A DNA stretch of 52,482 bases from the IMG/VR virus record IMGVR_UViG_3300005253_000354, positions 1 through 52,482 of that record; one strand, written 5' to 3'. This document shows positions 2,477 to 48,579 of this stretch, one piece after another (position 1 is the stretch's first letter; each line of letters opens with the position of its first letter). A program made the position numbers and the translations under genes. The notes beneath the pieces are model-generated. The model saw nothing but the letters and a program-made list of their open reading frames with translations. It made no database searches and had not been told where the DNA came from. Source of the DNA: a virus. Lineage: Duplodnaviria; Caudoviricetes.

Positions 2477-3130
2477 ATGAGCATCGAGACGCCGATCGCC
2501 GACACGGCTGCGGAGATCGTGGGCGTCCGAGCGGCTGCGCGCGCTCTGGATATCAACCCCTCGACGGTCAGTCGCTACCTCAAAGACTTCCCGGAGCTCA
2601 ACCAGGGCGACGAGGTCGGCCCGAAGGTCGACCCCGAGGCGCTGCGCCGACACCGGTTGGCGAACATCAACCAGGCGCGTTCGGGGAGTCACGGCGGACG
2701 GCTGTTGGGTGAGAGTGCGCCGGCGCCCGCCGGCGAGGATCTGGCACCCGCCGGCGGCGGCGATGCAACGGTCACGAACAAGGCGAGAAAGGAAGCCGAG
2801 GCGCCGAGCTATGCGGTGGCGAAAGCGGTCCGCGAGACGGTGCTCGCCCAGCGGGCGCGGATCGATCTCGACGAAAAACGCGGTCTCTTGGTCGTGCGCC
2901 AAGAGATCGAGGACGCGATCTTCGAGGCCGGGACCGTCCTGCAGCGCGAGCTCCTCGAGCTCGGCTCGCAGTTGTCCGACCGTCTGGCTGCGATGGACTC
3001 TCCGCGGGAGATCGCGCTCTTGCTTGAGGGCGAGCACCGCCGCGTCCTGGCCGGCCTGGCGGCCACCCTTCGGGCGTCCGCCCGGTCGGACGAGGCGCAG
3101 GATAAAGCCATTGCGTTCGCCGAGGTCTAA
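2477..3130 (+). CDS. terS: Terminase small subunit (Nu1-like)
   Basis: N-terminal HTH (VRAAARALDINPSTVSRY), coiled coil with EKRGLLV motif, overlaps the large subunit. Confidence 0.8.
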   Translation: MSIETPIADTAAEIVGVRAAARALDINPSTVSRYLKDFPELNQGDEVGPKVDPEALRRHRLANINQARSGSHGGRLLGESAPAPAGEDLAPAGGGDATVTNKARKEAEAPSYAVAKAVRETVLAQRARIDLDEKRGLLVVRQEIEDAIFEAGTVLQRELLELGSQLSDRLAAMDSPREIALLLEGEHRRVLAGLAATLRASARSDEAQDKAIAFAEV

Positions 3131-5195
3131 GGCTTGGGCCGGCATCGTCGCCGGCGGTGCCGTCTTCGCCCGCGTCTTCGCGCCGGCGATCGACCCGCCG
3201 CCGGTGCTGAGCGTCGCCGAGTGGGCCGAGGCCAGCCGGATCGTGTCGCCGGAAAGCGGATCACCCTATCCCGGCGAGTGGAAGAACGACCTTGTTCCCT
3301 ACGCTGTCGAGCCGATGGAGTGTCTCTCGTTCAAGGATCCATGTCGCGACGTAATCTTCAAGAAGAGTCACCAGATCGGCGGCACCGAGATCGGAGTCAA
3401 CCTGTTCGGCTATTTGGTCGATCGACAGCCCTGTCCCGTCGTCATCGTGCTTCCGACGATCGACGAGGCGGTCAAGTACGACCGAGTCAAACTGACGCCG
3501 ACGATCGAAACGACGCCGGCGCTACGCTCCAAGGTGCGCGCGCAACGGAGCCGGGACGAGTCCGGCTCGACCATGGCTTTCAAGCGGTTCGCCGGCGGGT
3601 TCGCCCAGCTGGTCGGGGCGAATAGTTCGGTCGGGCTGCAGATGATCTCCGCGCGCGTTCTTATCGCCGAGGAGATCTCGGGCTGGCCGCAGGACGCCGG
3701 CAACCGCGGGGATCCGCTGGCCCAAGTCGAGAAGCGCTTGACCGCGTGGTCGCTCCGCGGCCAGAAGCGCTATTATTCGTCGACGCCGGACCTCACGGGC
3801 AGCTGTCGGATCTCGGCGAAATATGAGCGATCCGATCAGCGCCGCTATTATGTTCCCTGCCCTCAGTGCGGCACGTTCCAGACTCTCCGGTTTGAAAATC
3901 TCAAATGGAAGAAGAAGCGCCCGCCGTTCGGCGCCCATTTCGTCTGCGCCGCCAATGGCTGCGTGATCGAGCACCACGACAAGCGCGCCATGGTCGCGGC
4001 CGGGGCATGGGTGAAGACTTACGTCGACGATGACGAGGACGGCGAGGCGACGGACGTGCCGGGCCCGGTTATCGAGCCGAAAGACCTCGAGCGCTATCGA
4101 GCGCGCGCCAGCAACGGCCGGCAACCGGGCTTTGCGATCTGGCAAGCGTACAGTCCCTTTACCGATTGGGACGAGATCGTCGCCGAGCGCCTCGAGTCGA
4201 AGGGCGACCCCTTCAAGGAAAAGACCTTCACGCAGCAAGTCCTCGGCGAGCCATACGAGGAGAGCGGCGAGGCGCCGGACTTCGAGAAGCTGGTGGCGCG
4301 CGTCGAGCCCTATCCGCTCGGCAAGATACCGCCCGGCGGCCTGGTGCTGACCGGCATGGCCGACGTCCAGATCAACCGCATCGAATATGGCATCTACGCC
4401 TGGGGCATCGGCATGACCGCCTGGCTGGTCGACAAGGGCGTGATCCTGGGCGACCCGGCGCAAGTCGAGACCTGGGCCGGGCTCGACAAGGTGGTGGCGC
4501 GCGAATACGAGGACTGGCAGGGCCGCCGCTGGCCGGTCGAGGCCTTCGGGGTCGACGCCGGGTATCTCTCCAACATGGTCTATCTGTTCTGCCGCAAGCG
4601 CGAGCGGGTCTACGCGCTCGACGGCCGCGGCGGCCACCTGCACCCGCCGATCGGCACGCCCAAGCGCATGAGCGTGTCGTTTCGCGGCAAGCGCCTCGCG
4701 CGCGGCGTCATGCTCTGGCCGACCGGTACCTGGTCGCTGAAATCCTGGCTCTATGCCGCCGCGCGCAAGACCATCGAGGGGCCGGACGAGGACGGCAACT
4801 GGCCGCTCGGCTGCCTGCACTACCCGGACGCCTGCGACCTGGAATTCTTCAAGCAACTGACCGCTGAATACATCGTGCAGGTCGAGGTCAAGGGCGGTCT
4901 GCGCCGCGAGTGGCGCAAGATCAAGGGCCAGGCCAACGAGCAGCTGGACATCTTCGTCGGCGCCCGGGCCCTGGCCGCGCACCTGCGCCTCGACAACCTG
5001 AGCCGTGAGGACTGGGCCCGCATCGCGCAGGAGCGCGGCGCGCCGCCGGACCAGGTCCAGCGCGACCTGGCCGAACTCTGGGCACCGACGCCGGTGGCCG
5101 CGGCCGCCAAGGCTGGCGAGAAGACGCCCGCACCCGAACCCGGCCGCGACCCGGCGGACGCCGCCACCTCCACGCGCTCGCGCTGGATGAACTGA
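3111..5195 (+). CDS. terL: Terminase large subunit, lambda GpA family
   Basis: KSHQIGGTE Walker A, LIAEEIS Walker B, SSTP, SDQRRYYVPCPQCG, C-terminal nuclease (ADVQ, VDAG); TTG 3111 start estimated. Confidence 0.95.
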   Translation: MRSPRSKAWAGIVAGGAVFARVFAPAIDPPPVLSVAEWAEASRIVSPESGSPYPGEWKNDLVPYAVEPMECLSFKDPCRDVIFKKSHQIGGTEIGVNLFGYLVDRQPCPVVIVLPTIDEAVKYDRVKLTPTIETTPALRSKVRAQRSRDESGSTMAFKRFAGGFAQLVGANSSVGLQMISARVLIAEEISGWPQDAGNRGDPLAQVEKRLTAWSLRGQKRYYSSTPDLTGSCRISAKYERSDQRRYYVPCPQCGTFQTLRFENLKWKKKRPPFGAHFVCAANGCVIEHHDKRAMVAAGAWVKTYVDDDEDGEATDVPGPVIEPKDLERYRARASNGRQPGFAIWQAYSPFTDWDEIVAERLESKGDPFKEKTFTQQVLGEPYEESGEAPDFEKLVARVEPYPLGKIPPGGLVLTGMADVQINRIEYGIYAWGIGMTAWLVDKGVILGDPAQVETWAGLDKVVAREYEDWQGRRWPVEAFGVDAGYLSNMVYLFCRKRERVYALDGRGGHLHPPIGTPKRMSVSFRGKRLARGVMLWPTGTWSLKSWLYAAARKTIEGPDEDGNWPLGCLHYPDACDLEFFKQLTAEYIVQVEVKGGLRREWRKIKGQANEQLDIFVGARALAAHLRLDNLSREDWARIAQERGAPPDQVQRDLAELWAPTPVAAAAKAGEKTPAPEPGRDPADAATSTRSRWMN

Positions 5196-36308: not shown

Positions 36309-36647
36309 ATGTCTCATACAGAACAGTTCTTGTCCGAGGTTCACGATTTCGTGAACGAGACTGGGATAAGTCCAACGGCGCTTGGCAAGGCCGCCGTCGG
36401 CGATGGCTCGATCATCGTCGAGGTGAGAAACGGCCGCAGCCCGACGCTGCGGACCGTCGACAAGATCACCACCTACATGGCCGCCGAGCGCCTGCGCCGC
36501 GCCGAGGCCGGCGCGCGGCGCAGCACGGCCTGCGAAGCCCTGGTGCCCCAGCAGGTCGAAAGAGAGGTCTATCGCGCAGCCACGCGCGCCTTGAACCGCC
36601 TCGGTACCGGCTGGCGCGCGCGCCTGTTGCGGTGGTTCCGGCCATGA
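36309..36647 (+). CDS. Cro-like protein
   Basis: FLSEV..F..TGISPTALGKAAVGD..VRNGRSPTLRTVDK, typical of alphaproteobacterial phage Cro-like proteins. Confidence 0.8.
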   Translation: MSHTEQFLSEVHDFVNETGISPTALGKAAVGDGSIIVEVRNGRSPTLRTVDKITTYMAAERLRRAEAGARRSTACEALVPQQVEREVYRAATRALNRLGTGWRARLLRWFRP

Positions 36648-36678
36648 GCCGGGCGAAGCCCAAGCAAGGAAAAATCAC

Positions 36679-37053
36679 GTGATCAGCGCCGAAGAAGTGG
36701 ACGCCAACTATGCCGAGCTCAGCGCTCAGATCGACCGCCTGGAGGAACTTGAGATGCCCGCATGGTCAGGCACAGAAGTCGGAAGTCAGAAGCCGGAAGC
36801 TGTGGCGCCCGCCCCGAGATGTATCGGATGCCGTTACTTTCTCCGTTTTGACGTCGAATTCGATCCTGGGCATTGCCACCGTCACGCGCCGACCGCCGGC
36901 AAGAGGGGTACTGCCCAATGGCCCTCAGTGTGGGGCGAGTATTGGTGCGGGGACTTCGAGGAGGTCTGCGAAGCGTCCACCCTGGCGGCGGCGGATCGTC
37001 GAGCTGCGCCATCGGGCTTCTGGGCGCGGGTCCTGGGGTGGTTCCGAGGGTGA
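36679..37053 (+). CDS. Hypothetical Cys-rich protein
   Basis: CIGC..GHCHRHAP..WP..WCGDF. Confidence 0.65.
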   Translation: MISAEEVDANYAELSAQIDRLEELEMPAWSGTEVGSQKPEAVAPAPRCIGCRYFLRFDVEFDPGHCHRHAPTAGKRGTAQWPSVWGEYWCGDFEEVCEASTLAAADRRAAPSGFWARVLGWFRG

Positions 37054-37092
37054 GGAGCCGACCGCCGGGCGTTTAGACCGAAAGGACCGATC

Positions 37093-37665
37093 ATGGAGAC
37101 CATCCACTACGAGATCACCGGGACCGCGCCGCTGCTGATGCAGTCGGAGCGCACGGTGAACCCCTTCGACCCGCTGACCAAAGCGATGAAGGTGATTACC
37201 GGCAAGAAAAAGAAGACCGAGGAGGACAAGATGGATCTGGCCCGCCTGGAGTTCGAGGCCGGGCTGTATTTCGACGCCGATCTCGGCCCCTACATCCCCG
37301 GCCTCAACCTGGACGCGATGATCCGCGACGCGGCGAAACTGTCCAAGCTCGGCAAGGCGGTCCAGCGCGGCACCATGGTGGTCGAGGACAAGAACCGGCT
37401 CGAGTACGACGGCCCACGCTCTATCGCCAAGCTGTGGGCGGACGAGCGCTTCGTCGATCTCAGGAGCGCAGTCGTCCAGCGCGCCCGGATAATGCGCTGC
37501 CGGCCGATCTTCCGCGCCTGGCGGGTCGCCTTCACCGTGGCCTTGGACCCGAAGATCCTGGACGCCGCCGAAGTCCGCCGGATCGTCACCGACGCCGGGC
37601 GTTACATCGGCCTGGGCACCTATCGGCCGCGCTTCGGCCGCTTCGAGGTAACCGGCGATGATTAG
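37093..37665 (+). CDS. Stand-alone RAMP (Cas7/Csm3-like) RNA-binding protein
   Basis: N-terminal strand EITGTAPLLM, YIPG..AMIRDAA, RCRPIF..W, C-terminal Gly-rich loop AGRYIGLGTYRPRFGRFEV. Confidence 0.75.
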   Translation: METIHYEITGTAPLLMQSERTVNPFDPLTKAMKVITGKKKKTEEDKMDLARLEFEAGLYFDADLGPYIPGLNLDAMIRDAAKLSKLGKAVQRGTMVVEDKNRLEYDGPRSIAKLWADERFVDLRSAVVQRARIMRCRPIFRAWRVAFTVALDPKILDAAEVRRIVTDAGRYIGLGTYRPRFGRFEVTGDD

Positions 37666-37669
37666 TTGT

Positions 37670-38408
37670 AGCGCGGCTCTGCATAGCACGGCCGGGCTGG
37701 GCCGGGCGAGGCAGGGCAAGGCACGGAGAGTTCGGCGATTTTCACGACGGTGCGGCATGGTGTGGTCCGGCCTGGTTTGGCAAGGCTCGGCCCGGCGCCG
37801 CTCGGCTTGGCACGGCTTGGCACGGCTTGGCACGGAGATTTGAATGATTAGCGAGGTTGTGGCGCTGCTGGGCGCGGCGCGGCTGGGCCGGGCGGGGCAA
37901 GGCTTTGCTGGGTGCGGCATGGCGGGGCGCGGCACGGAGATTTTGACGATTGTCACGAGTTCATCGCGGCGTGGCCGTGCATTGCCCGGCACAGCTTGGC
38001 ATGGCGCGGCTTGGCCTGGCGAGGCACGGAGACTTTGCGGATTTCACGCGGCTCGGCGGGGCAGGGCCAGGCCTGGCCTGGCAGGGCACGGCCTGGCGGG
38101 GCAAGGCACGGAAACTTTGCAGATACCACGCGGCGCCGCTTGGTTTGGCCTTGCTGGGCTCGGAGCGGCTGGGCAAGGCAGGGCGCGGCTTGGCACGGAG
38201 ATTTCAGGAATTTTACGCGGCAGGGCGCGGCGGCGCGTGGCCAGGCCCGGCTCGGCGTGGCAAGCCGCAGCTCGGCTGGGCGCGGCTCGGCCAGGCCCGG
38301 CAAGGCACGGAGACTTTGCGGATTTCACTCGGCGCGGCAAGGCATGGCGGGGCAAGGTCCGGCGGGGCGAGGCGCGGCGGGGCTTGGCAAGGGACGGGGA
38401 TTTGAATC
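37670..38408 (+). ncRNA. Array of 8 putative guide-RNA units, (GGY-NN)n-GGAGA-linker
   Basis: Units start at 37670, 37749, 37861, 37968, 38050, 38132, 38219, 38331 with 11, 17, 15, 12, 12, 13, 18, 13 pentamers; the repeat structure is certain, RNA function is inferred. Confidence 0.75.
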
Positions 38409-38945
38409 ATGATCGAGGCTAAACCGATCGAGGTGCATCCGGCCTGGCGCCAAGCGCTGGCCGGGTTCCACGAGCAGGGCTTCGAGGCCGGCGACCTGGT
38501 CGGCTTCGACTGGCTCTACGAAGCGTTCAAGATCACCCGGCCGGGACCGGCGACGCGCTACGAGGACGCCAAGAAGGCCGAGCTCGCCTTCGTCGCCGCG
38601 ATGGAGCCGTTCCGCGGCGCCCTGCTGCGCGAGCACCAGATAGCGCTCGATAACGTGCGCGGCCAAGGTTACCGGATCGTGCCGCCGCCCGAGCAGACCG
38701 AGTGGGCCGAGACGGCGGGGCTGCGCGAGGCCAAGCGCGCGCTCGGCAAGATGGGGCACCGGCTCAGCTTCGTCGACATGCGGCAATTGAACGCCGCCGA
38801 GCGGCGCGCCAACGCCGACGCCTTAACGCGGTACGCCATGCTCGCCGGCCTCACCAAACGCATCGAGAAGGTCCGGCGCGAGCCCGAGGCGGTCCTTGCG
38901 GCCGACGAAGCGGCTCGCGCAATTGGCGGGCCCAATGATGCCTGA
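38409..38945 (+). CDS. Accessory protein with winged-helix-like motif, coupled to the array
   Basis: NVRGQGYRIV wing motif, helical C-terminus; its RBS is the end of the last array unit. Confidence 0.7.
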   Translation: MIEAKPIEVHPAWRQALAGFHEQGFEAGDLVGFDWLYEAFKITRPGPATRYEDAKKAELAFVAAMEPFRGALLREHQIALDNVRGQGYRIVPPPEQTEWAETAGLREAKRALGKMGHRLSFVDMRQLNAAERRANADALTRYAMLAGLTKRIEKVRREPEAVLAADEAARAIGGPNDA

Positions 38946-39177
38946 TCCCCGATCCCTGGCCTCTGGAACCCCCTTCACCTGCCCCGGCTGCGGCGCCGAG
39001 ACCGACGACCTCGATGCGCTCGCCGAGACCTGTGTCGATTACGTCTCCGGCATCGGCCGCTGCCCGGCGCGCGCCGAGGTCCTGGACCGCCGGCGCCGGT
39101 GCCAGCACTTCCGCCAGCTCCTCGCCGGTGATCCGGTGGGCGAGCCGTTCATCGCCGGCGACGGAGGGCCGGTATGA
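38935..39177 (+). CDS. Small Zn-binding hypothetical protein
   Basis: CPGC plus further Cys; overlaps its neighbours. Confidence 0.5.
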   Translation: MMPDPRSLASGTPFTCPGCGAETDDLDALAETCVDYVSGIGRCPARAEVLDRRRRCQHFRQLLAGDPVGEPFIAGDGGPV

Positions 39178-39641
39178 CCGCAATCCGTCAAACGCGCGCC
39201 GCTGCCGGCCAACCCGGCGCGCAGCAAATCCCCGCCACCTCGGTCAACCCGGCCTATTGGGCGGTGGTGCAGGGCCGGCTTGCGGGCGCGCACCCGGAGA
39301 CGCCAACGGCCGTCAACCCGCACCGCATCCGCGACGCAGGCGGCAGGTTAATCAAGACATGCCGCTCGCGGACCAGCCGGGCCCTGGCGCTGTGCTGGGA
39401 CTACGGCTTCGCCGGCATGCCGCGCGCGCGGCCGAAACCCCGTGACACAGTTTCACGTGGAACAACGCTCCGGCCGCCGCGCGACGATTGGCGGGACCAC
39501 GAAATCGAGGTGCTGCGGCTGGCGCGCTCGGGCGGCCAAGGCCACCTGAGCGACCGGCAACTCGCGGTCATCGTCGGCAAGAGCCACGACGCGGTGCGCG
39601 CGAAGCTGGCGCGCGGGCGGCGCTTGAGCGAGAGAGCGTGA
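39174..39641 (+). CDS. Hypothetical protein with C-terminal HTH
   Basis: WRDHEIEVL..SDRQLAVIVGKSHDAVRAK. Confidence 0.6.
   Translation: MTAIRQTRAAAGQPGAQQIPATSVNPAYWAVVQGRLAGAHPETPTAVNPHRIRDAGGRLIKTCRSRTSRALALCWDYGFAGMPRARPKPRDTVSRGTTLRPPRDDWRDHEIEVLRLARSGGQGHLSDRQLAVIVGKSHDAVRAKLARGRRLSERA
39449..39464. promoter_or_regulatory. parS-like site AGTTTCACGTGGAACA
   Basis: 15/16 match to the bacterial parS variant TGTTTCACGTGGAACA. Confidence 0.55.
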
Positions 39642-40046: not shown

Positions 40047-40366
40047 GCCGGCCTCCGGAGCGGACGCTTGGCGAGACCGAGCTGCGCGCGCCGCGCCGCC
40101 GGCATCACTCGAACCCGGCATCCGACACCCAGGACCCGCCGCGCGCGAGCGACGCGCTGGTCCGGGCCGCCGACCGCGCGCTCGAGGCGGCGTGCCATTT
40201 CATCGACGGGGATCTCGACTACGGCGCCCTGCGCCTGCTGGCCCAGCGCTACCGCGCCGAGGTCGAGCGCGCGGGGCTGGCGACGGCGCGCGCCGGGGTT
40301 GGCCAGGGCGGCCGGCGCAACGAAAAGAAGTCCCATTTCGTACAATCTGACCCATCGGAAGATTGA
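40043..40366 (+). CDS. Hypothetical protein
   Basis: Overlapping starts and stops within the early operon. Confidence 0.5.
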   Translation: MSRPPERTLGETELRAPRRRHHSNPASDTQDPPRASDALVRAADRALEAACHFIDGDLDYGALRLLAQRYRAEVERAGLATARAGVGQGGRRNEKKSHFVQSDPSED

Positions 40367-41247
40367 TGGCCGAAAACAGCAAAATCGAGTGGACGGACGC
40401 GACCTGGAACCCCGTCGTCGGCTGCTCGGTCGTCTCGCCCGGCTGCACCAACTGCTATGCCATGCGCATGGCCGGAACGCGGCTCAAGACGACGAAGCCC
40501 TACAGCGGGCTCACCCAGGATACCAAGGCTGGGCCCGTCTGGACCGGCGCGGTGCGGTTCCTCGAGGAGCGTCTTACCCAACCGCTCAAGTGGCGCAAGC
40601 CGCGACGGGTGTTCGTGAACTCCATGGGAGACCTGTTCCATGAGGATGTGCCCGATGATTGGATCGATAAGGTCTTTGCCGTGATGGCTGCCTCGCCGCG
40701 CCACACCTTCCAGGTTCTGACCAAGCGGCCGGAGCGGATGCGCGAGCATGTGCTCCGCCTTTCGAGGACCATAAACCCGCTCGAAGCGGAAGCCCGTGCG
40801 TTCGGCCACACCTTCAATTTCGAGGGTCATTCGCTCCTGCGTTGGCCGATCCCAAATATCTGGCTCGGCACATCGGTCGAGGACCAGCGCCGCGCGGATG
40901 AGCGGATGCCCCATCTGCTGAACGCGCCGGCAGCAGTGCGGTTCCTGTCGTGTGAACCCCTGCTAGGGCCGATTGACTTGCGGGAAGTATCAACCGCAGG
41001 CGTGGGTGCCGCCGCTGGGAACAAGATGGCCGACTGCCTTCATTGGGTCATCGCCGGCGGCGAGAGCGGCCCGCGCGCGCGGGGCATGGATCCAGCCTGG
41101 CCACGATCGATCAGAGACCAATGCCGAGAGGCGGGCGTGCCGTTCTTCATGAAGCAGATGTCGCGCAAGGCGCCGATCCCCGCCGATCTCATGGTGCGGG
41201 AATTTCCAAGGTCGGATTCTGCACCAAGTAGCGAGGAGCCGAAATAG
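40366..41247 (+). CDS. DUF5131 / phage Gp37-Gp68 family protein
   Basis: SKIEWTDATWNPVVGC..SPGCTNCYA, FVNSMGDLFH, LTKRP, SCEPLLG, GGESG, PFFMKQ. Confidence 0.93.
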   Translation: MAENSKIEWTDATWNPVVGCSVVSPGCTNCYAMRMAGTRLKTTKPYSGLTQDTKAGPVWTGAVRFLEERLTQPLKWRKPRRVFVNSMGDLFHEDVPDDWIDKVFAVMAASPRHTFQVLTKRPERMREHVLRLSRTINPLEAEARAFGHTFNFEGHSLLRWPIPNIWLGTSVEDQRRADERMPHLLNAPAAVRFLSCEPLLGPIDLREVSTAGVGAAAGNKMADCLHWVIAGGESGPRARGMDPAWPRSIRDQCREAGVPFFMKQMSRKAPIPADLMVREFPRSDSAPSSEEPK

Positions 41248-42023
41248 TGGCCCGAATCATCTCCTGGTTTAGCTGCGGAGCACCTAGCGCGGTGGCCACC
41301 AAATTGGCCCGCCCGGACGTGATCGCCTATTGCGAAGTCAAGGAGGAGCACCCGGACAACATGCGGTTCCTGCGTGATTGCGAGAAGTGGTTTGGCCAGG
41401 AAGTTCTGATCCTGGGGAACGACAAATACGGCCGCTCGGCCCGTGAGGTTTGGCGGCAAACCCGATTCCTGGTTGGCCCCACGGGCGCCCGTTGCACCAC
41501 CGAGCTGAAGAAGAAGGTTCGCCAGCAATTTCAAGAGCCGGATGATGTGATTGTGATGGGCTACACGGCCGATGAAACCGACCGGGTTGCGAAGTTCCAG
41601 GGGGCCAATGCCGAGGGGCATAACCTCTGGCCTATCCTGATTGAGCGAGGTCTGACCCGAAGCGACTGCAAGGCCGTGGTCGAGAGGGCGGGCATCGAAC
41701 TTCCGGCCATGTACCTCCTGGGCTATCGGAACAACAACTGCATCGGCTGCATCAAGGGCCAGGCCGGCTACTGGAACAAGATCAAGGACGATTTCCCCGA
41801 GGATTTCCAGGAAACAGCCCAGATCGAGGCGGAACTAGGGCGCACTATCTGCAAGCGGGAATGGACCAATGGAGGCGGTGAGCGGCAGCTAGAGCGGTTT
41901 CCGTTGACTGAGTTGCCGCCGGACCTCGGCGACTATCCCAACGAGACGGATATCGAGTGCAGCCTGTTCTGCCGGATGGCCGAGCAAGATATGTCCGTTA
42001 TTGACACTCAGGAGAAGGGTTGA
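41247..42023 (+). CDS. PP-loop (PAPS reductase-like) protein with Cys clusters
   Basis: SWFSCGAPSAVA, EHPDN.RF, CTTELKK, NNNCIGCIKG, ECSLFC. Confidence 0.75.
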   Translation: MARIISWFSCGAPSAVATKLARPDVIAYCEVKEEHPDNMRFLRDCEKWFGQEVLILGNDKYGRSAREVWRQTRFLVGPTGARCTTELKKKVRQQFQEPDDVIVMGYTADETDRVAKFQGANAEGHNLWPILIERGLTRSDCKAVVERAGIELPAMYLLGYRNNNCIGCIKGQAGYWNKIKDDFPEDFQETAQIEAELGRTICKREWTNGGGERQLERFPLTELPPDLGDYPNETDIECSLFCRMAEQDMSVIDTQEKG

Positions 42024-43763: not shown

Positions 43764-43792
43764 ATTGCGCCAGCTAGGCCCGAGGAAGATTG

Positions 43793-44689
43793 ATGCCCAG
43801 AATCGCGTCAAAATCAGCTTCTGAACCGAGACGGCCGGCGTTACGCTGGCACGGCGGGAAGTGGCTGCTCGCGCCCTGGATCATCGAACATTTCCCGGCG
43901 CACCGGATCTACGTTGAGCCTTTTGGTGGGGCAGCCTCGGTACTAATCCGCAAGCCGAGATGCTACGGCGAGGTCTACAATGACCTGGATGGCGAGGCGG
44001 TCAATCTGTTCCAGGTGCTGCGCTCCGATCGCGCCAGCGAGCTGGTCGAGAATTTGCGCCTGACCCCCTTCGCGCGGGAGGAATTCGAAGCGGCATACCA
44101 GCCCGGCCAGGATCCTGTGGAGCGCGCCCGATGCCTAGTGGTGAGGTCCTTCCAGGGGTTCGGATCGGACGGCTTCAACCTAGGCGCGCGGCGAACCGGC
44201 TTCCGGGCGAACGCCAATCGCAATGGTACGACGCCGGCGCAGGACTGGGCCAACTATCCGGAAGCCCTCGGCGCCTTGATCGAGCGATTCCAGGGCGTGG
44301 TGATCGAGAGCCGGGACGCACAGGGCTGCATGGGTCAGCACGACGGACCGGGCACGCTGCACTACGTTGACCCGCCCTATCTGCCGGAAACACGGTCGAC
44401 CAAGAAAAAGAACGGCGAGCGGTATCACGCCTACGCGCATGAGCTGACGGCCGAGGACCACGCCGATCTCTTGGCCTACATCCAGGACCTCAAGGGAATG
44501 GTGGTGCTCTCAGGCTATCCCTCGGCGCTCTACGACGACGCGCTGCCGGCGTGGTTCCGCGTCGAGCGCAAGGCCCTGGCGGACGGCGCCCGTGAGCGTA
44601 CCGAGGTCCTGTGGGTCAACCCGGCAGGATGGCGGGCGCGCGACCATGGGCTGTTCGGTGGGTCGGTTTGTGAGGCACCCGATGGTTGA
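43793..44689 (+). CDS. Dam-like (D12 class) DNA adenine methyltransferase
   Basis: WHGGKW, YVEPFGGAASV, EVYNDLD, YVDPPY. Confidence 0.93.
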   Translation: MPRIASKSASEPRRPALRWHGGKWLLAPWIIEHFPAHRIYVEPFGGAASVLIRKPRCYGEVYNDLDGEAVNLFQVLRSDRASELVENLRLTPFAREEFEAAYQPGQDPVERARCLVVRSFQGFGSDGFNLGARRTGFRANANRNGTTPAQDWANYPEALGALIERFQGVVIESRDAQGCMGQHDGPGTLHYVDPPYLPETRSTKKKNGERYHAYAHELTAEDHADLLAYIQDLKGMVVLSGYPSALYDDALPAWFRVERKALADGARERTEVLWVNPAGWRARDHGLFGGSVCEAPDG

Positions 44690-46939: not shown

Positions 46940-47350
46940 ATGGCCCGTTTTGATGACATCTCTATCGGCGCCCAACTCATGCGTACATACACGATGCGCG
47001 GATGGCGTGGCGGCATTGATGATACCAGCGGGCCGCCGACCGATCTGTCTCAACAAACTTGGTATTACATCGTGACCGATCTTTGGTTTGATCCCGTCAA
47101 AGGCGATACCAACCCGAAGAAAGGGCAGATGGTCGGCGTGCGGCGCCTTAACGGTCACGGTGAAGCCTTTGGGCGCAAGCAAGGACACACTCGGCGGGGT
47201 CTTGCCTCAAACGGATTTCACTACGCCGACCGAGATTACATCTCCGAATGCAAAGCCTTCCTTGCAGCGAAGGAGGAAGGCAAAGTCGTTGGCATCGGGA
47301 TGGGTCTGGTTCTTCGCCAGCGTCCAAAACTGCCGGGGCACAGATTGTAA
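46940..47350 (+). CDS. Hypothetical protein
   Basis: Lower-GC ORF with WYYIVTDLWFDP. Confidence 0.65.
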   Translation: MARFDDISIGAQLMRTYTMRGWRGGIDDTSGPPTDLSQQTWYYIVTDLWFDPVKGDTNPKKGQMVGVRRLNGHGEAFGRKQGHTRRGLASNGFHYADRDYISECKAFLAAKEEGKVVGIGMGLVLRQRPKLPGHRL

Positions 47351-47386
47351 TTGGAAAGTGCGAAATAGAGCGCAAGGAGCTACAGC

Positions 47387-47590
47387 ATGAGCCTTTGGAA
47401 AGCGATCTTGAAGTGCAGCGATTGCGGTCAGACGCTCAACACGGCCGAGCATGTGCCGAAGGATCAAAAGGGTCGAGTAGCGATGTCGAGCGGGTTCGCC
47501 GCCGGCTCTTGCCCAAGAGGCTGTCGTGCAACCTTCTCCGATTTGAATCTCAATACCGACCTAGAATGGGTCGAGGAAGCCGGCGCATAA
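47387..47590 (+). CDS. Zn-ribbon protein
   Basis: CSDC..CPRGC; AAGGAG RBS. Confidence 0.6.
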   Translation: MSLWKAILKCSDCGQTLNTAEHVPKDQKGRVAMSSGFAAGSCPRGCRATFSDLNLNTDLEWVEEAGA

Positions 47591-47607
47591 AGGAGGCCTT
47601 CCGCCCC

Positions 47608-48579
47608 ATGACCGCACCCGCCGAAACCCCCGACATCGACGCCCTCGCGCGCAGGATCGGCGCCGCCTGGCGGCGCGGGGTCGAGGCGATCCTGGAGACC
47701 GGCGGGCTGATGGCGCAAGCGCGCGAGGACTTGGGCGACGACGATTGGGCGGCGTTCATCGTGCGGCTGCCCTTCGGGCCGCGCTACGCCCGGATGCTGG
47801 TGCGGATTGGGGCCGATTCGCGACTAGGGAAACACGTTTCCCTGCTGCCGACCGATACGCTCATCATCTACAACATCACCCAACTCTCCGACCAGAGATT
47901 CGACGAGCTCAAGGCTGCCGACGCGATCCACCCGGGCATGGCGCGGGGCGATCTCGACACATTATCGAAGGCGGACGCGCGGGCCGACAAAGAGCGCGAT
48001 TTGGGCGCGCGCACGGCGGCGGGCAACGCGGAGCTCGCCGAGCGCGGATCCTGGCGCAAGTACAACGTGATTTATGCGGATCCGGCCTGGCGCTTCGAGA
48101 CATACAGCGCCAAGGGCAAGCGCAAGTCGGCGGATAATCACTATCCAACCATGTCCACTGACGAGATCGGCGCGCTCGAGGTAGGCGGCTTGGCGGCTGC
48201 GGACTGTGCGCTGTTCCTCTGGGCGACCGTGCCCCTGCTGGTCGAGGCCGGCATGACGCTGGCCGCCTGGGGCTTCCGCTACAAGAGCCACTTCGTGTGG
48301 GTCAAGGACAAGGCCGGGACCGGCTACTGGAACCGCAACCGCCACGAGCTCCTGCTGGTCGGGACGCGCGGGGCGATCCCGGCGCCGGCGCCCGGCACTC
48401 AGGTCGACAGCGTGCTCGAAACCGCGCCGGGCGAGGTCCTGGCGCACAGCCAGAAGCCGCAGTCCGCGTGCGCCATGATCGAGGCCTATTACCCGAGCTG
48501 CCCCAAGATCGAGCTATTTGCCCGGCCGCCGGCCGCCGACGGTTGGGACCTTTGGGGGAACGAGGCACCAGCGCCATGA
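47608..48579 (+). CDS. MT-A70 family adenine methyltransferase with N-terminal helical domain
   Basis: IYADPAW, HYPTM, LFLW, WGFRYK, HELLLVG, HSQKP, IELFAR, WGNE. Confidence 0.92.
   Translation: MTAPAETPDIDALARRIGAAWRRGVEAILETGGLMAQAREDLGDDDWAAFIVRLPFGPRYARMLVRIGADSRLGKHVSLLPTDTLIIYNITQLSDQRFDELKAADAIHPGMARGDLDTLSKADARADKERDLGARTAAGNAELAERGSWRKYNVIYADPAWRFETYSAKGKRKSADNHYPTMSTDEIGALEVGGLAAADCALFLWATVPLLVEAGMTLAAWGFRYKSHFVWVKDKAGTGYWNRNRHELLLVGTRGAIPAPAPGTQVDSVLETAPGEVLAHSQKPQSACAMIEAYYPSCPKIELFARPPAADGWDLWGNEAPAP

Follow-up and report, generated by a model that had tools for sequence, protein, structure and literature searches.

The question raised by this stretch of DNA is what the repeats that fill a 743-bp gap (37666–38408), separating two plus-strand early genes of a Caudoviricetes virus, are for. 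The window, meaning the whole stretch analyzed, is the 52,482-bp IMG/VR virus record IMGVR_UViG_3300005253_000354, whose estimated completeness is 68%. It holds genes for a lambda-type terminase, a portal, an S49 protease, a decoration protein and a gpE-type capsid, and further an integrase, divergent early genes and an O-like replication initiator. Our analysis indicated that these repeats very probably make up the guide-RNA array of a type II-like system called VIPR (Viral Interference Programmable Repeat). It lies within the early operon of a lambda-like temperate phage whose host is probably an alphaproteobacterium.

VIPR is a CRISPR-like phage weapon that was first described in 2026, from Escherichia and Pseudomonas examples, and is covered by three preprints (bioRxiv 10.64898/2026.04.26.720920, 10.64898/2026.04.26.720927 and 10.64898/2026.10.15.759431). 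According to these preprints, Vipr is a stand-alone RAMP protein encoded mostly by phages, and its guide, the vrRNA, consists of 9 to 16 GGY/NN repeats with an invariant tail at the 3′ end; the published vrRNA caller needs at least 4 such pentamers, 9 to 16 being typical. One protomer is reported to sit on each repeat, with GGY buried and NN pairing with DNA whose every third base is skipped. The rule of a 1-nt skip, with the skipped bases at wobble positions, is given in bioRxiv 10.64898/2026.04.26.720920, and the resulting codon periodicity is described as "preventing mutation-based escape" in bioRxiv 10.64898/2026.10.15.759431. Natural targets are reported to be mostly coding and on either strand, with neither a protospacer-adjacent motif nor self-targeting, and to be called at 80% or more of the NN bases; Vipr binding is described as silencing transcription. 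Type II systems (SUSP1 and Pseudomonas fulva) are said to have an added gene, vap1.

The array comprises eight units (U1 to U8) within 37670–38420, each consisting of 11 to 18 five-base steps (GGY plus two variable bases, NN) and then a conserved tail of about 22 nt. For the parse, 5-mers were cut backwards from a constant AC, so that the register was fixed by the tail and not pentamer by pentamer. This independent parse returned 11, 17, 15, 12, 12, 13, 18 and 13 pentamers for U1 to U8, and reproduced all 111 NN dinucleotides that a preliminary description of the sequence had read as eight spacer-like strings. All eight strings differ, giving eight addresses. The pentamers start with GGC (88) or GGT (7), together 95 GGY, and otherwise with TGC (6), AGC (4), CGC (3), GGA, GCC or GGG (1 each). 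Pentamer positions 1 to 3 carry 1.30, 1.93 and 1.51 bits of information, whereas the values at the two N positions are 0.03 and 0.09, which bears out the claim that variable strings lie on a conserved scaffold, unlike a decaying microsatellite. Within the window, (GGCNN)4GGC was found 27 times, on the plus strand only and entirely within 37690–38388, versus a shuffle expectation of 0.04, and none of the 100 shuffles attained 27. The terminal AC had been called constant and was found in 8/8 units, at the junction of tract and tail (GGCAC/GGAGA). The statement that TA never occurs held in this array (0/111 NN versus about 3.7 expected from the marginal base frequencies, which is only weakly unusual), but GGCTA units are present in other arrays, and thus the absence of TA is no rule of the VIPR family.

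The conserved block GGAGAYTTTGCGGATTTCACGC, found in this exact form in units 4 to 7, is the 3′ tail behind each tract, a correction of the anatomy. The tails of units 1 to 8 are not identical to each other; their alignment has 14 invariant columns, and the conserved tail sequence was recognized in 8/8. On the plus strand, predicted vrRNA 1 (37670–37748) comprises 11 pentamers at 37670–37724, with an unbroken GGY run only in the last 7, and a tail at 37725–37748; vrRNA 2 (37749–37860) comprises 17 pentamers at 37749–37833 and a tail at 37834–37860; and vrRNA 3 (37861–37967) comprises 15 pentamers at 37861–37935 and a tail at 37936–37967. Tails of 22 nt end the next four, namely vrRNA 4 (37968–38049; 12 pentamers at 37968–38027), vrRNA 5 (38050–38131; 12 uninterrupted GGCNN pentamers at 38050–38109), vrRNA 6 (38132–38218; 13 pentamers at 38132–38196) and vrRNA 7 (38219–38330; 18 pentamers at 38219–38308). 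In vrRNA 8 (38331–38420), the tail behind the 13 pentamers at 38331–38395 is degenerate and shares its sequence in part with the ribosome-binding site and ATG from which the downstream gene starts. Tract and tail coordinates give unit lengths of 79 to 112 nt. The two tracts of 17 and 18 pentamers exceed 16 under the parse of the preliminary description, and their 5′ limits are uncertain. Rfam gave no match at E values up to 1 in 36500–39500, and a promoter and terminator scan yielded nothing useful within the array.

The genes on either side of the array link it to VIPR. The upstream gene (37093..37665, plus strand) encodes a 190-aa Cas7-like RAMP protein assigned to phrog_4652 (E 9.6e-60), the same PHROG as SUSP1 gp039. 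A phmmer search matched residues 2–186 of its 190 to PDB chain 36pp_D, "SUSP1 Vipr protein", with an E value of 1.5e-32. An AlphaFold2 model of the product (mean pLDDT 95.0, pTM 0.88) was compared with the PDB by Foldseek, which returned 69 matches at E ≤ 0.001. The top ones were Cmr4/Csm3 chains (E 7.8e-6), and all the matches listed, with E values of 7.8e-6 to 5e-4 and TM scores of 0.45 to 0.58, were chains of CRISPR effector complexes, Cas7-family members of type III, IV and VII complexes. The RAMP architecture of described Viprs combines an RRM core, a glycine-rich loop and a thumb. The G-loop GLGTYRPRFGRF is kept, and its G-L-G-x5-F-G-R-F is invariant or nearly so across 34 homologues. 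In the SUSP1 structure, H17, K33, R138, D177, W178 and R179 are reported to hold G1, G2, Y3 and the skipped target base (bioRxiv 10.64898/2026.04.26.720927); K33, R137 and R178 of the protein in the window correspond to the contact residues K33, R138 and R179, and Y177 lies at the position of W178. The protein is 50.8% identical to the Vipr of Pseudomonas phage Medea1, its closest named relative, and 35.3% identical to that of SUSP1. Thus, it is clearly a Vipr homologue, and by analogy it should polymerise along the GGY/NN tracts. The downstream gene (38409..38945, plus strand) encodes a 178-aa protein of phrog_5926 (E 6.2e-26), the PHROG that also holds SUSP1 gp038, the gene behind SUSP1 vipr, and Medea1 gp08. 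BLASTP gave 30% identity to the former (E 1e-12) and 37% to the latter (E 1e-31), and on these alignments the gene is a vap1 homologue. The phrog_4652 Vipr match, the vap1 homologue, the GGY/NN tracts with their tails and the phage setting thus give the locus the testable features of the family.

We then asked what the NN strings may address. The collection scans used exact patterns, and since the R-loop is reported to grow from the tail end (bioRxiv 10.64898/2026.04.26.720927), the seeds were 3′-proximal, without the terminal AC; that of U6 had 16 bases at a 1-nt skip. In the viral collection the U6 seed found at least 119 matches, all of them in one motif, D-G-K-A-L-F-H-A-D-H, on the antisense strand and with codon position 3 as the skipped base throughout. 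The matched protein is a major capsid protein of the Phage_capsid_4/Mu gpT type. In one provirus (L374) it is a 603-aa protease-capsid fusion whose gene neighbors encode an integrase, a primase, a small terminase, a large terminase (35% identical to that of the window), a portal and a decoration protein; proviruses with the matched gene bear integrases, have a high G+C content similar to that of the window, and carry related terminase and portal genes. The best U6 sites, in L274, L263, L257 and L211, match 24 of 26 informative bases (92%) and encode the peptide GKALFHADHGNKA. Past the seed, U6 matched 8/10 extra bases (P = 0.0185; 20000 random NN draws, 63 distinct flank variants). Among 301 alphaproteobacterial genomes, a U6 site with 3 or fewer mismatches was present in 2 (both at 3), versus 0/301 for the reversed pattern.

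U2 was examined on the same 119 loci, which had not been selected with U2. Its best score at the 1-nt skip was 26/34, versus 19 to 21, the level of shuffles, at 0-, 2- and 3-nt skips; 26/34 was attained by 1 of 4000 shuffles of NN order and by 0 of 2000 base shuffles. The U2 matches share the strand of the U6 site and are 210, 213 or 222 nt away from it, which places both in one frame of one gene, and again the skipped base falls on codon position 3. In L236, U2 matched 25/28 over its first 14 units. The best joint targets were L257 (the same record as L374), with 24/26 for U6 and 24/34 for U2, and L236, with 22/26 and 26/34. The two guides therefore match, in codon phase, two conserved stretches 70–74 codons apart in a fused protease-major-capsid gene, and from these alignments vrRNA 2 and vrRNA 6 appear to be aimed at the protease-capsid gene of rival phages, with GKALFHADHGNKA as the predicted target motif of vrRNA 6.

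In the preliminary description, each string was proposed to specify a target, possibly gapped as NN-x-NN-x, and synonymous escape was expected to be ineffective if the skipped base lay at codon position 3. The gapped code, reached there from sequence alone, is the published VIPR reading and agrees with the U6 and U2 matches; no counterpart was found in the more limited search for the other six guides. The argument on escape coincides with the rule reported for VIPR, and position 3 is indeed the skipped one in both matches. As for the proposed comparison of gapped, contiguous and shuffled searches, the 26/34 of U2 at the 1-nt skip only was in favor of the gapped code; the window gave no excess of self-matches. 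With the array masked, no self-target in the 52-kb window scored above shuffles at any spacing (30 shuffles per guide), and the best self scores at a 1-nt skip, 15/22 to 23/36, amount to 62–68% of the informative bases. The window's own capsid is of the lambda gpE family and unrelated to the matched one. Cultured phages with the matched capsid family (118 records, all below 60% identity) were considered as well, and the two that were scored proved not to be targets: RcKemmy gave 16/26 for U6 and 21/34 for U2, and Ralstonia phage YO375_1 gave 19/26 and 21/34.

A number of observations weigh against this interpretation of the locus. No target was found for the six guides other than U6 and U2, in a less full search that, in the viral collection, used one exact seed each for U4, U5, U7 and U8 and none for U1 and U3. 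The seeds of U4 and U7 also land on clusters of related low- or mid-G+C phage sequences without extending, and U4 at a 3-nt skip scored 19/24 in a prophage region (G057) versus a shuffle maximum of 17, among 32 tests. Neither U6 nor U2 had a perfect target in the collections scanned: both mismatches at the 24/26 U6 loci lie in glycine codons, and the best U2 match (76%) is under the 80% cut-off of the VIPR preprints. The contrast of U6 between 24/26 at the 1-nt skip and 15 to 17 at other spacings is circular, as the loci had been picked with a 1-nt-skip seed. On the side of the array and the protein, 16/111 pentamers are not GGY, RNAalifold found 0 pairs of shared secondary structure over the aligned tails, and Q17 and T176 replace the guanine-contact residues H17 and D177 of SUSP1, a pair also seen in 3/7 aligned Vipr relatives. 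No RNA was among the listed public runs holding the locus, and we infer transcription, processing and the vrRNA ends.

The individual seeds behaved as follows. That of U5 (9 NN) had 0 matches in the viral collection, and that of U8 (9 NN) had 2, which extended by only 3/8 and 1/8, the chance level. Those of U4 and U7 (8 NN) had 26 each, the best being 20/24 and 26/36, with no meaningful extension. For U4 (L321–L346), 19/26 lie on one sense-strand motif (D/E-x-PTFIAFLEAYYEF) in phages with a G+C content of 0.29–0.40, most of them 0.29–0.31; for U7 (L347–L372), about 11/26 lie on AYGH(L/I)FGWDAQEA. These clusters are probably chance matches multiplied by related contigs, and they could be distant homologues of real targets. 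Since such seeds fall on conserved motifs without extension, a seed on a conserved motif is by itself no proof of targeting.

Similar tracts were found elsewhere. A distant BLAST search of the array against phages gave matches in unannotated gaps of Mycobacterium phages. In the cluster F mycobacteriophage Quico (NC_028751, about 37314–37573; 2486–2745 of the retrieved locus L025), an unannotated gap of the early operon holds about 45–50 GGCNN units in one tract, broken by 4-nt steps and with no obvious tails, directly upstream of gp57, a phrog_4652 (Vipr) protein; the same BLAST matches were obtained in Florinda, Saal, BobaPhett and other related phages. A viral-contig relative found via the upstream protein (L011, 4040–4345) has GGCNN tracts with conserved blocks of its own. 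Its gene order is vipr, vap1, array, ssb, and its three to four tracts are each followed by a block unlike that of the window (..GGGCATGA..AAAAGGCCCGA.TTTTC..). Thus, clades differ in their tails but have the GGY/NN part in common. The longer pattern (GGCNN)8GGC was present in more than 137 viral-contig stretches. In 80 retrieved loci the G+C content was 0.39–0.71, so high G+C content is not the explanation for GGCNN tracts, and the tracts were on one strand only in 79/80. Within 2.5 kb (tblastn, E 1e-3), 39 of the 80 had a Vipr match and 2 a vap1 match, and 41 had neither. The tail pattern GGCACGGAGANTTTGNNGATT occurred in 0 viral contigs. As candidate near relatives, 33 metagenome stretches with GGCACGGAGANTTTGNNGATT were rejected as chance matches: 0/33 had a GGY/NN run beside the match, and one had a single 4-unit run elsewhere in its locus. 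The collections searched thus gave no near relative sharing the tail.

Other explanations of the repeats were weighed against a working VIPR array. The RNA might be of the VIPR type and yet serve as decoy or "solo" guides that redirect the Vipr of a competitor, or the array might be decaying, with guides that match nothing. Satellites and phages are indeed reported to carry vrRNAs that redirect the Vipr of other elements (bioRxiv 10.64898/2026.10.15.759431), and both the 16/111 degenerate pentamers and the six of eight guides for which no target was found would suit such an account; nevertheless, we consider it improbable, because an intact and highly conserved vipr gene, together with a vap1 gene, flanks the array on the same strand, two guides match one gene in codon phase, and internal degeneracy is reported to be frequent among working vrRNAs (bioRxiv 10.64898/2026.04.26.720920). 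The repeats could also act as DNA, either as an iteron- or centromere-like protein-binding array or as a G-rich R-loop stretch for replication in the early region; they are strictly periodic, G-rich and strand-asymmetric, fill an intergenic gap of the early operon, and have a replication initiator gene about 11 kb downstream. Such a role is very unlikely: with a 5-bp period, each site would face away from its neighbor on the DNA helix, GGY/NN tracts are found next to Vipr homologues in phages whose G+C content ranges from 0.41 to 0.70, the SUSP1 tracts are reported as sequenced RNAs of about 100 nt that co-purify with Vipr (bioRxiv 10.64898/2026.04.26.720920), and NN content that matches the coding sequence of other phages in codon phase would be needless in a binding array. 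R-loop origins and iterons, along with a TRAP-like ring protein and a Csr-type sponge, had been among our first ideas and were dropped after the PDB 36pp_D match.

The least probable account, to which we give hardly any credence, is that the region encodes a Gly/Ala/Arg-rich repeat protein (for example in the 192-codon open frame 37844–38422) or that it is an expanded microsatellite with no function. In its favor, every frame stays open through the array, because TA and most stop codons are absent from it. Against it, units 3 to 8 measure 107, 82, 82, 87, 112 and 90 nt, which modulo 3 gives 2, 1, 1, 0, 1 and 0, and thus a reading frame would shift from unit to unit; the best open reading frame of the array (37950–38405) has a G+C content at third codon positions of 0.74, versus 0.91 and 0.88 in the flanking genes. 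Conserved positions 1 to 3 with near-random positions 4 and 5 are the opposite of slippage decay, and neither Pfam nor Rfam returned a match.

Under the VIPR reading, and by homology to SUSP1, the plus strand would be transcribed and cut into eight vrRNAs of about 80–110 nt, each a GGY/NN tract with its tail of about 22 nt. One Vipr protomer would bind each pentamer, burying the GGY bases and presenting the two N bases, and the filament would invade double-stranded DNA, reading NNxNNx... with every third base skipped. Transcription would then be blocked at the target, with help from the vap1-like protein. The purpose may be to stop a rival prophage or a co-infecting phage from building heads, in a manner immune to escape by synonymous mutation. 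Much more tentatively, the system may be a variant specialized for war between prophages in Alphaproteobacteria. Such a variant, which we hold to be possible though rather doubtful, would have a large eight-guide array between vipr and vap1, a last tail in which vap1 has its ribosome-binding site and start, so that excision of the last guide could set the vap1 level, and at least two guides directed together against the structural protease-capsid gene of a rival temperate phage, not against regulators or recombinases. If so, VIPR would sterilize the virion production of a co-resident prophage at two wobble-proof sites in one late gene. Were the targets confirmed, VIPR would be seen to act naturally on structural late genes as well as on regulators and recombinases, and the Q17/T176 pair would represent an alternative hold on the first guanine.

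The locus extends VIPR to a marine-sediment phage. The named relatives of its terminase (Inquilinus, Hoeflea, Parvibaculum, Rhizomicrobium and Azospirillum; 49–57% identity) all belong to the Alphaproteobacteria, with one Burkholderiaceae and one Bacteroidota metagenome-assembled genome lower among the relatives; the best genome match (46% identity) is an alphaproteobacterial metagenome-assembled genome. Judged by these relatives, the host is probably an alphaproteobacterium. The terminase open reading frame (2709–5195) as called has 828 aa, with an N terminus about 130 residues longer than those of homologues (about 670–720 aa, 75–84% covered), and the true start probably lies further downstream. 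Beside the VIPR locus, the window carries a heavy load of DNA-modification genes: a ParB-domain/N6_N4 methylase fusion (127–1587), a DUF5131 gene next to a PAPS-reductase-like gene (40363–42023), a D12-class adenine methylase (43790–44689) and an MT-A70 methylase (47248–48579).

Four public DNA runs of two studies, including two that are possibly the source, yielded contigs that cover the array; they show the same eight units, with no unit gained or lost. These contigs differ from the window at four bases only, 38393, 38398, 38423 and 38433, where they read C, A, C and C versus G, G, A and G. The first two differences convert the GGGAC GGGGA of the last unit to the canonical GGCAC GGAGA, and the last two fall in the vap1-like gene, where they alter codons 5 and 9. 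Either the contigs come from a variant strain or the repeat was assembled differently. In one sediment metagenome run, further short contigs bearing GGCNN tracts match the array over 36–47 bases only, with 5–7 differences, and other VIPR arrays seem to coexist in that sediment sample. Tail 2 (37834–37860; GGAGATTTGAATGATTAGCGAGG...) resembles the vipr stop-codon junction (37652–37675; ...GATGATTAG...) and likewise the junction of tail 8 and the vap1 start (38396–38420; GGGGATTTGAATCATGATCGAGG). These similarities suggest that vipr and vap1 once adjoined directly, much as they overlap in Medea1, and that a duplication spanning their junction gave rise to part of the array.

Among known systems, the trp RNA-binding attenuation protein (TRAP) offers a parallel in its period: the oligomer reads (G/U)AG every five nucleotides, with two non-conserved spacer bases in between. 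TRAP is an unrelated ring protein whose spacers carry no information, whereas in VIPR the "spacers" are the informative part, and no TRAP-like gene is present here. With the backbone of class 1 CRISPR-Cas (Cas7/Csm3/Cmr4 on CRISPR RNA), the system shares the RAMP fold, an array that alternates constant and variable parts, and a protein filament on a guide RNA with periodically flipped bases. The CRISPR-Cas period is 6 nt with one flipped base, whereas that of VIPR is 5 nt with three buried and two presented, and VIPR reads its target with gaps; the constant part of a CRISPR array is a palindromic repeat, that of the present array a tail. A CRISPR-Cas array was rejected for the locus, whose constant parts are tails of about 22 nt differing between units, whose variable parts are themselves pentamer repeats, and which had no match in Rfam; among 30 window proteins scanned against Pfam, there was no cas1, cas2, nuclease or other Cas family beyond the RAMP fold.

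The Pseudomonas VIPR loci (the P. fulva prophage clade and Medea1) share the temperate-phage setting beside the immunity region. Medea1 (NC_074658, gp09–gp08, an unannotated locus) has the closest named Vipr (50.8%) and a vap1 at 37%, but there vipr and vap1 overlap and a short GGY tract lies downstream of vap1. The P. fulva vrRNAs are reported to be without the pseudoknot marker (bioRxiv 10.64898/2026.04.26.720927), as the tails here seem to be, and they differ in that their guides are described as mostly matching lysis-lysogeny regulators of resident prophages (bioRxiv 10.64898/2026.04.26.720920), a distinction that is drawn from the description and not from sequence.

The fullest comparison is with the type II system of the Escherichia phage SUSP1. 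Both are phage-encoded, with homologous Vipr (35% identity) and vap1 (30%), guides made of GGY+NN pentamers that end in a conserved 3′ tail, no self-target, and targets, here predicted ones, with one skipped base on the wobble position; the unit lengths of 79–112 nt here are close to the approximately 100 nt reported for SUSP1 vrRNAs. Different from SUSP1 are the eight guides between vipr and vap1, whereas SUSP1 has one vrRNA upstream of vipr and three downstream of vap1, and the short tail of about 22 nt without predicted structure, in contrast to a pseudoknot tail of about 40 nt. The pentamers are mostly GGT in SUSP1 and mostly GGC here (88 GGC and 7 GGT), and H17/D177/W178 are replaced by Q17/T176/Y177. 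Finally, SUSP1 targets the recombinase of a satellite, whereas the predicted target of the present system, in a host that is probably an alphaproteobacterium, is the capsid gene of a rival provirus.

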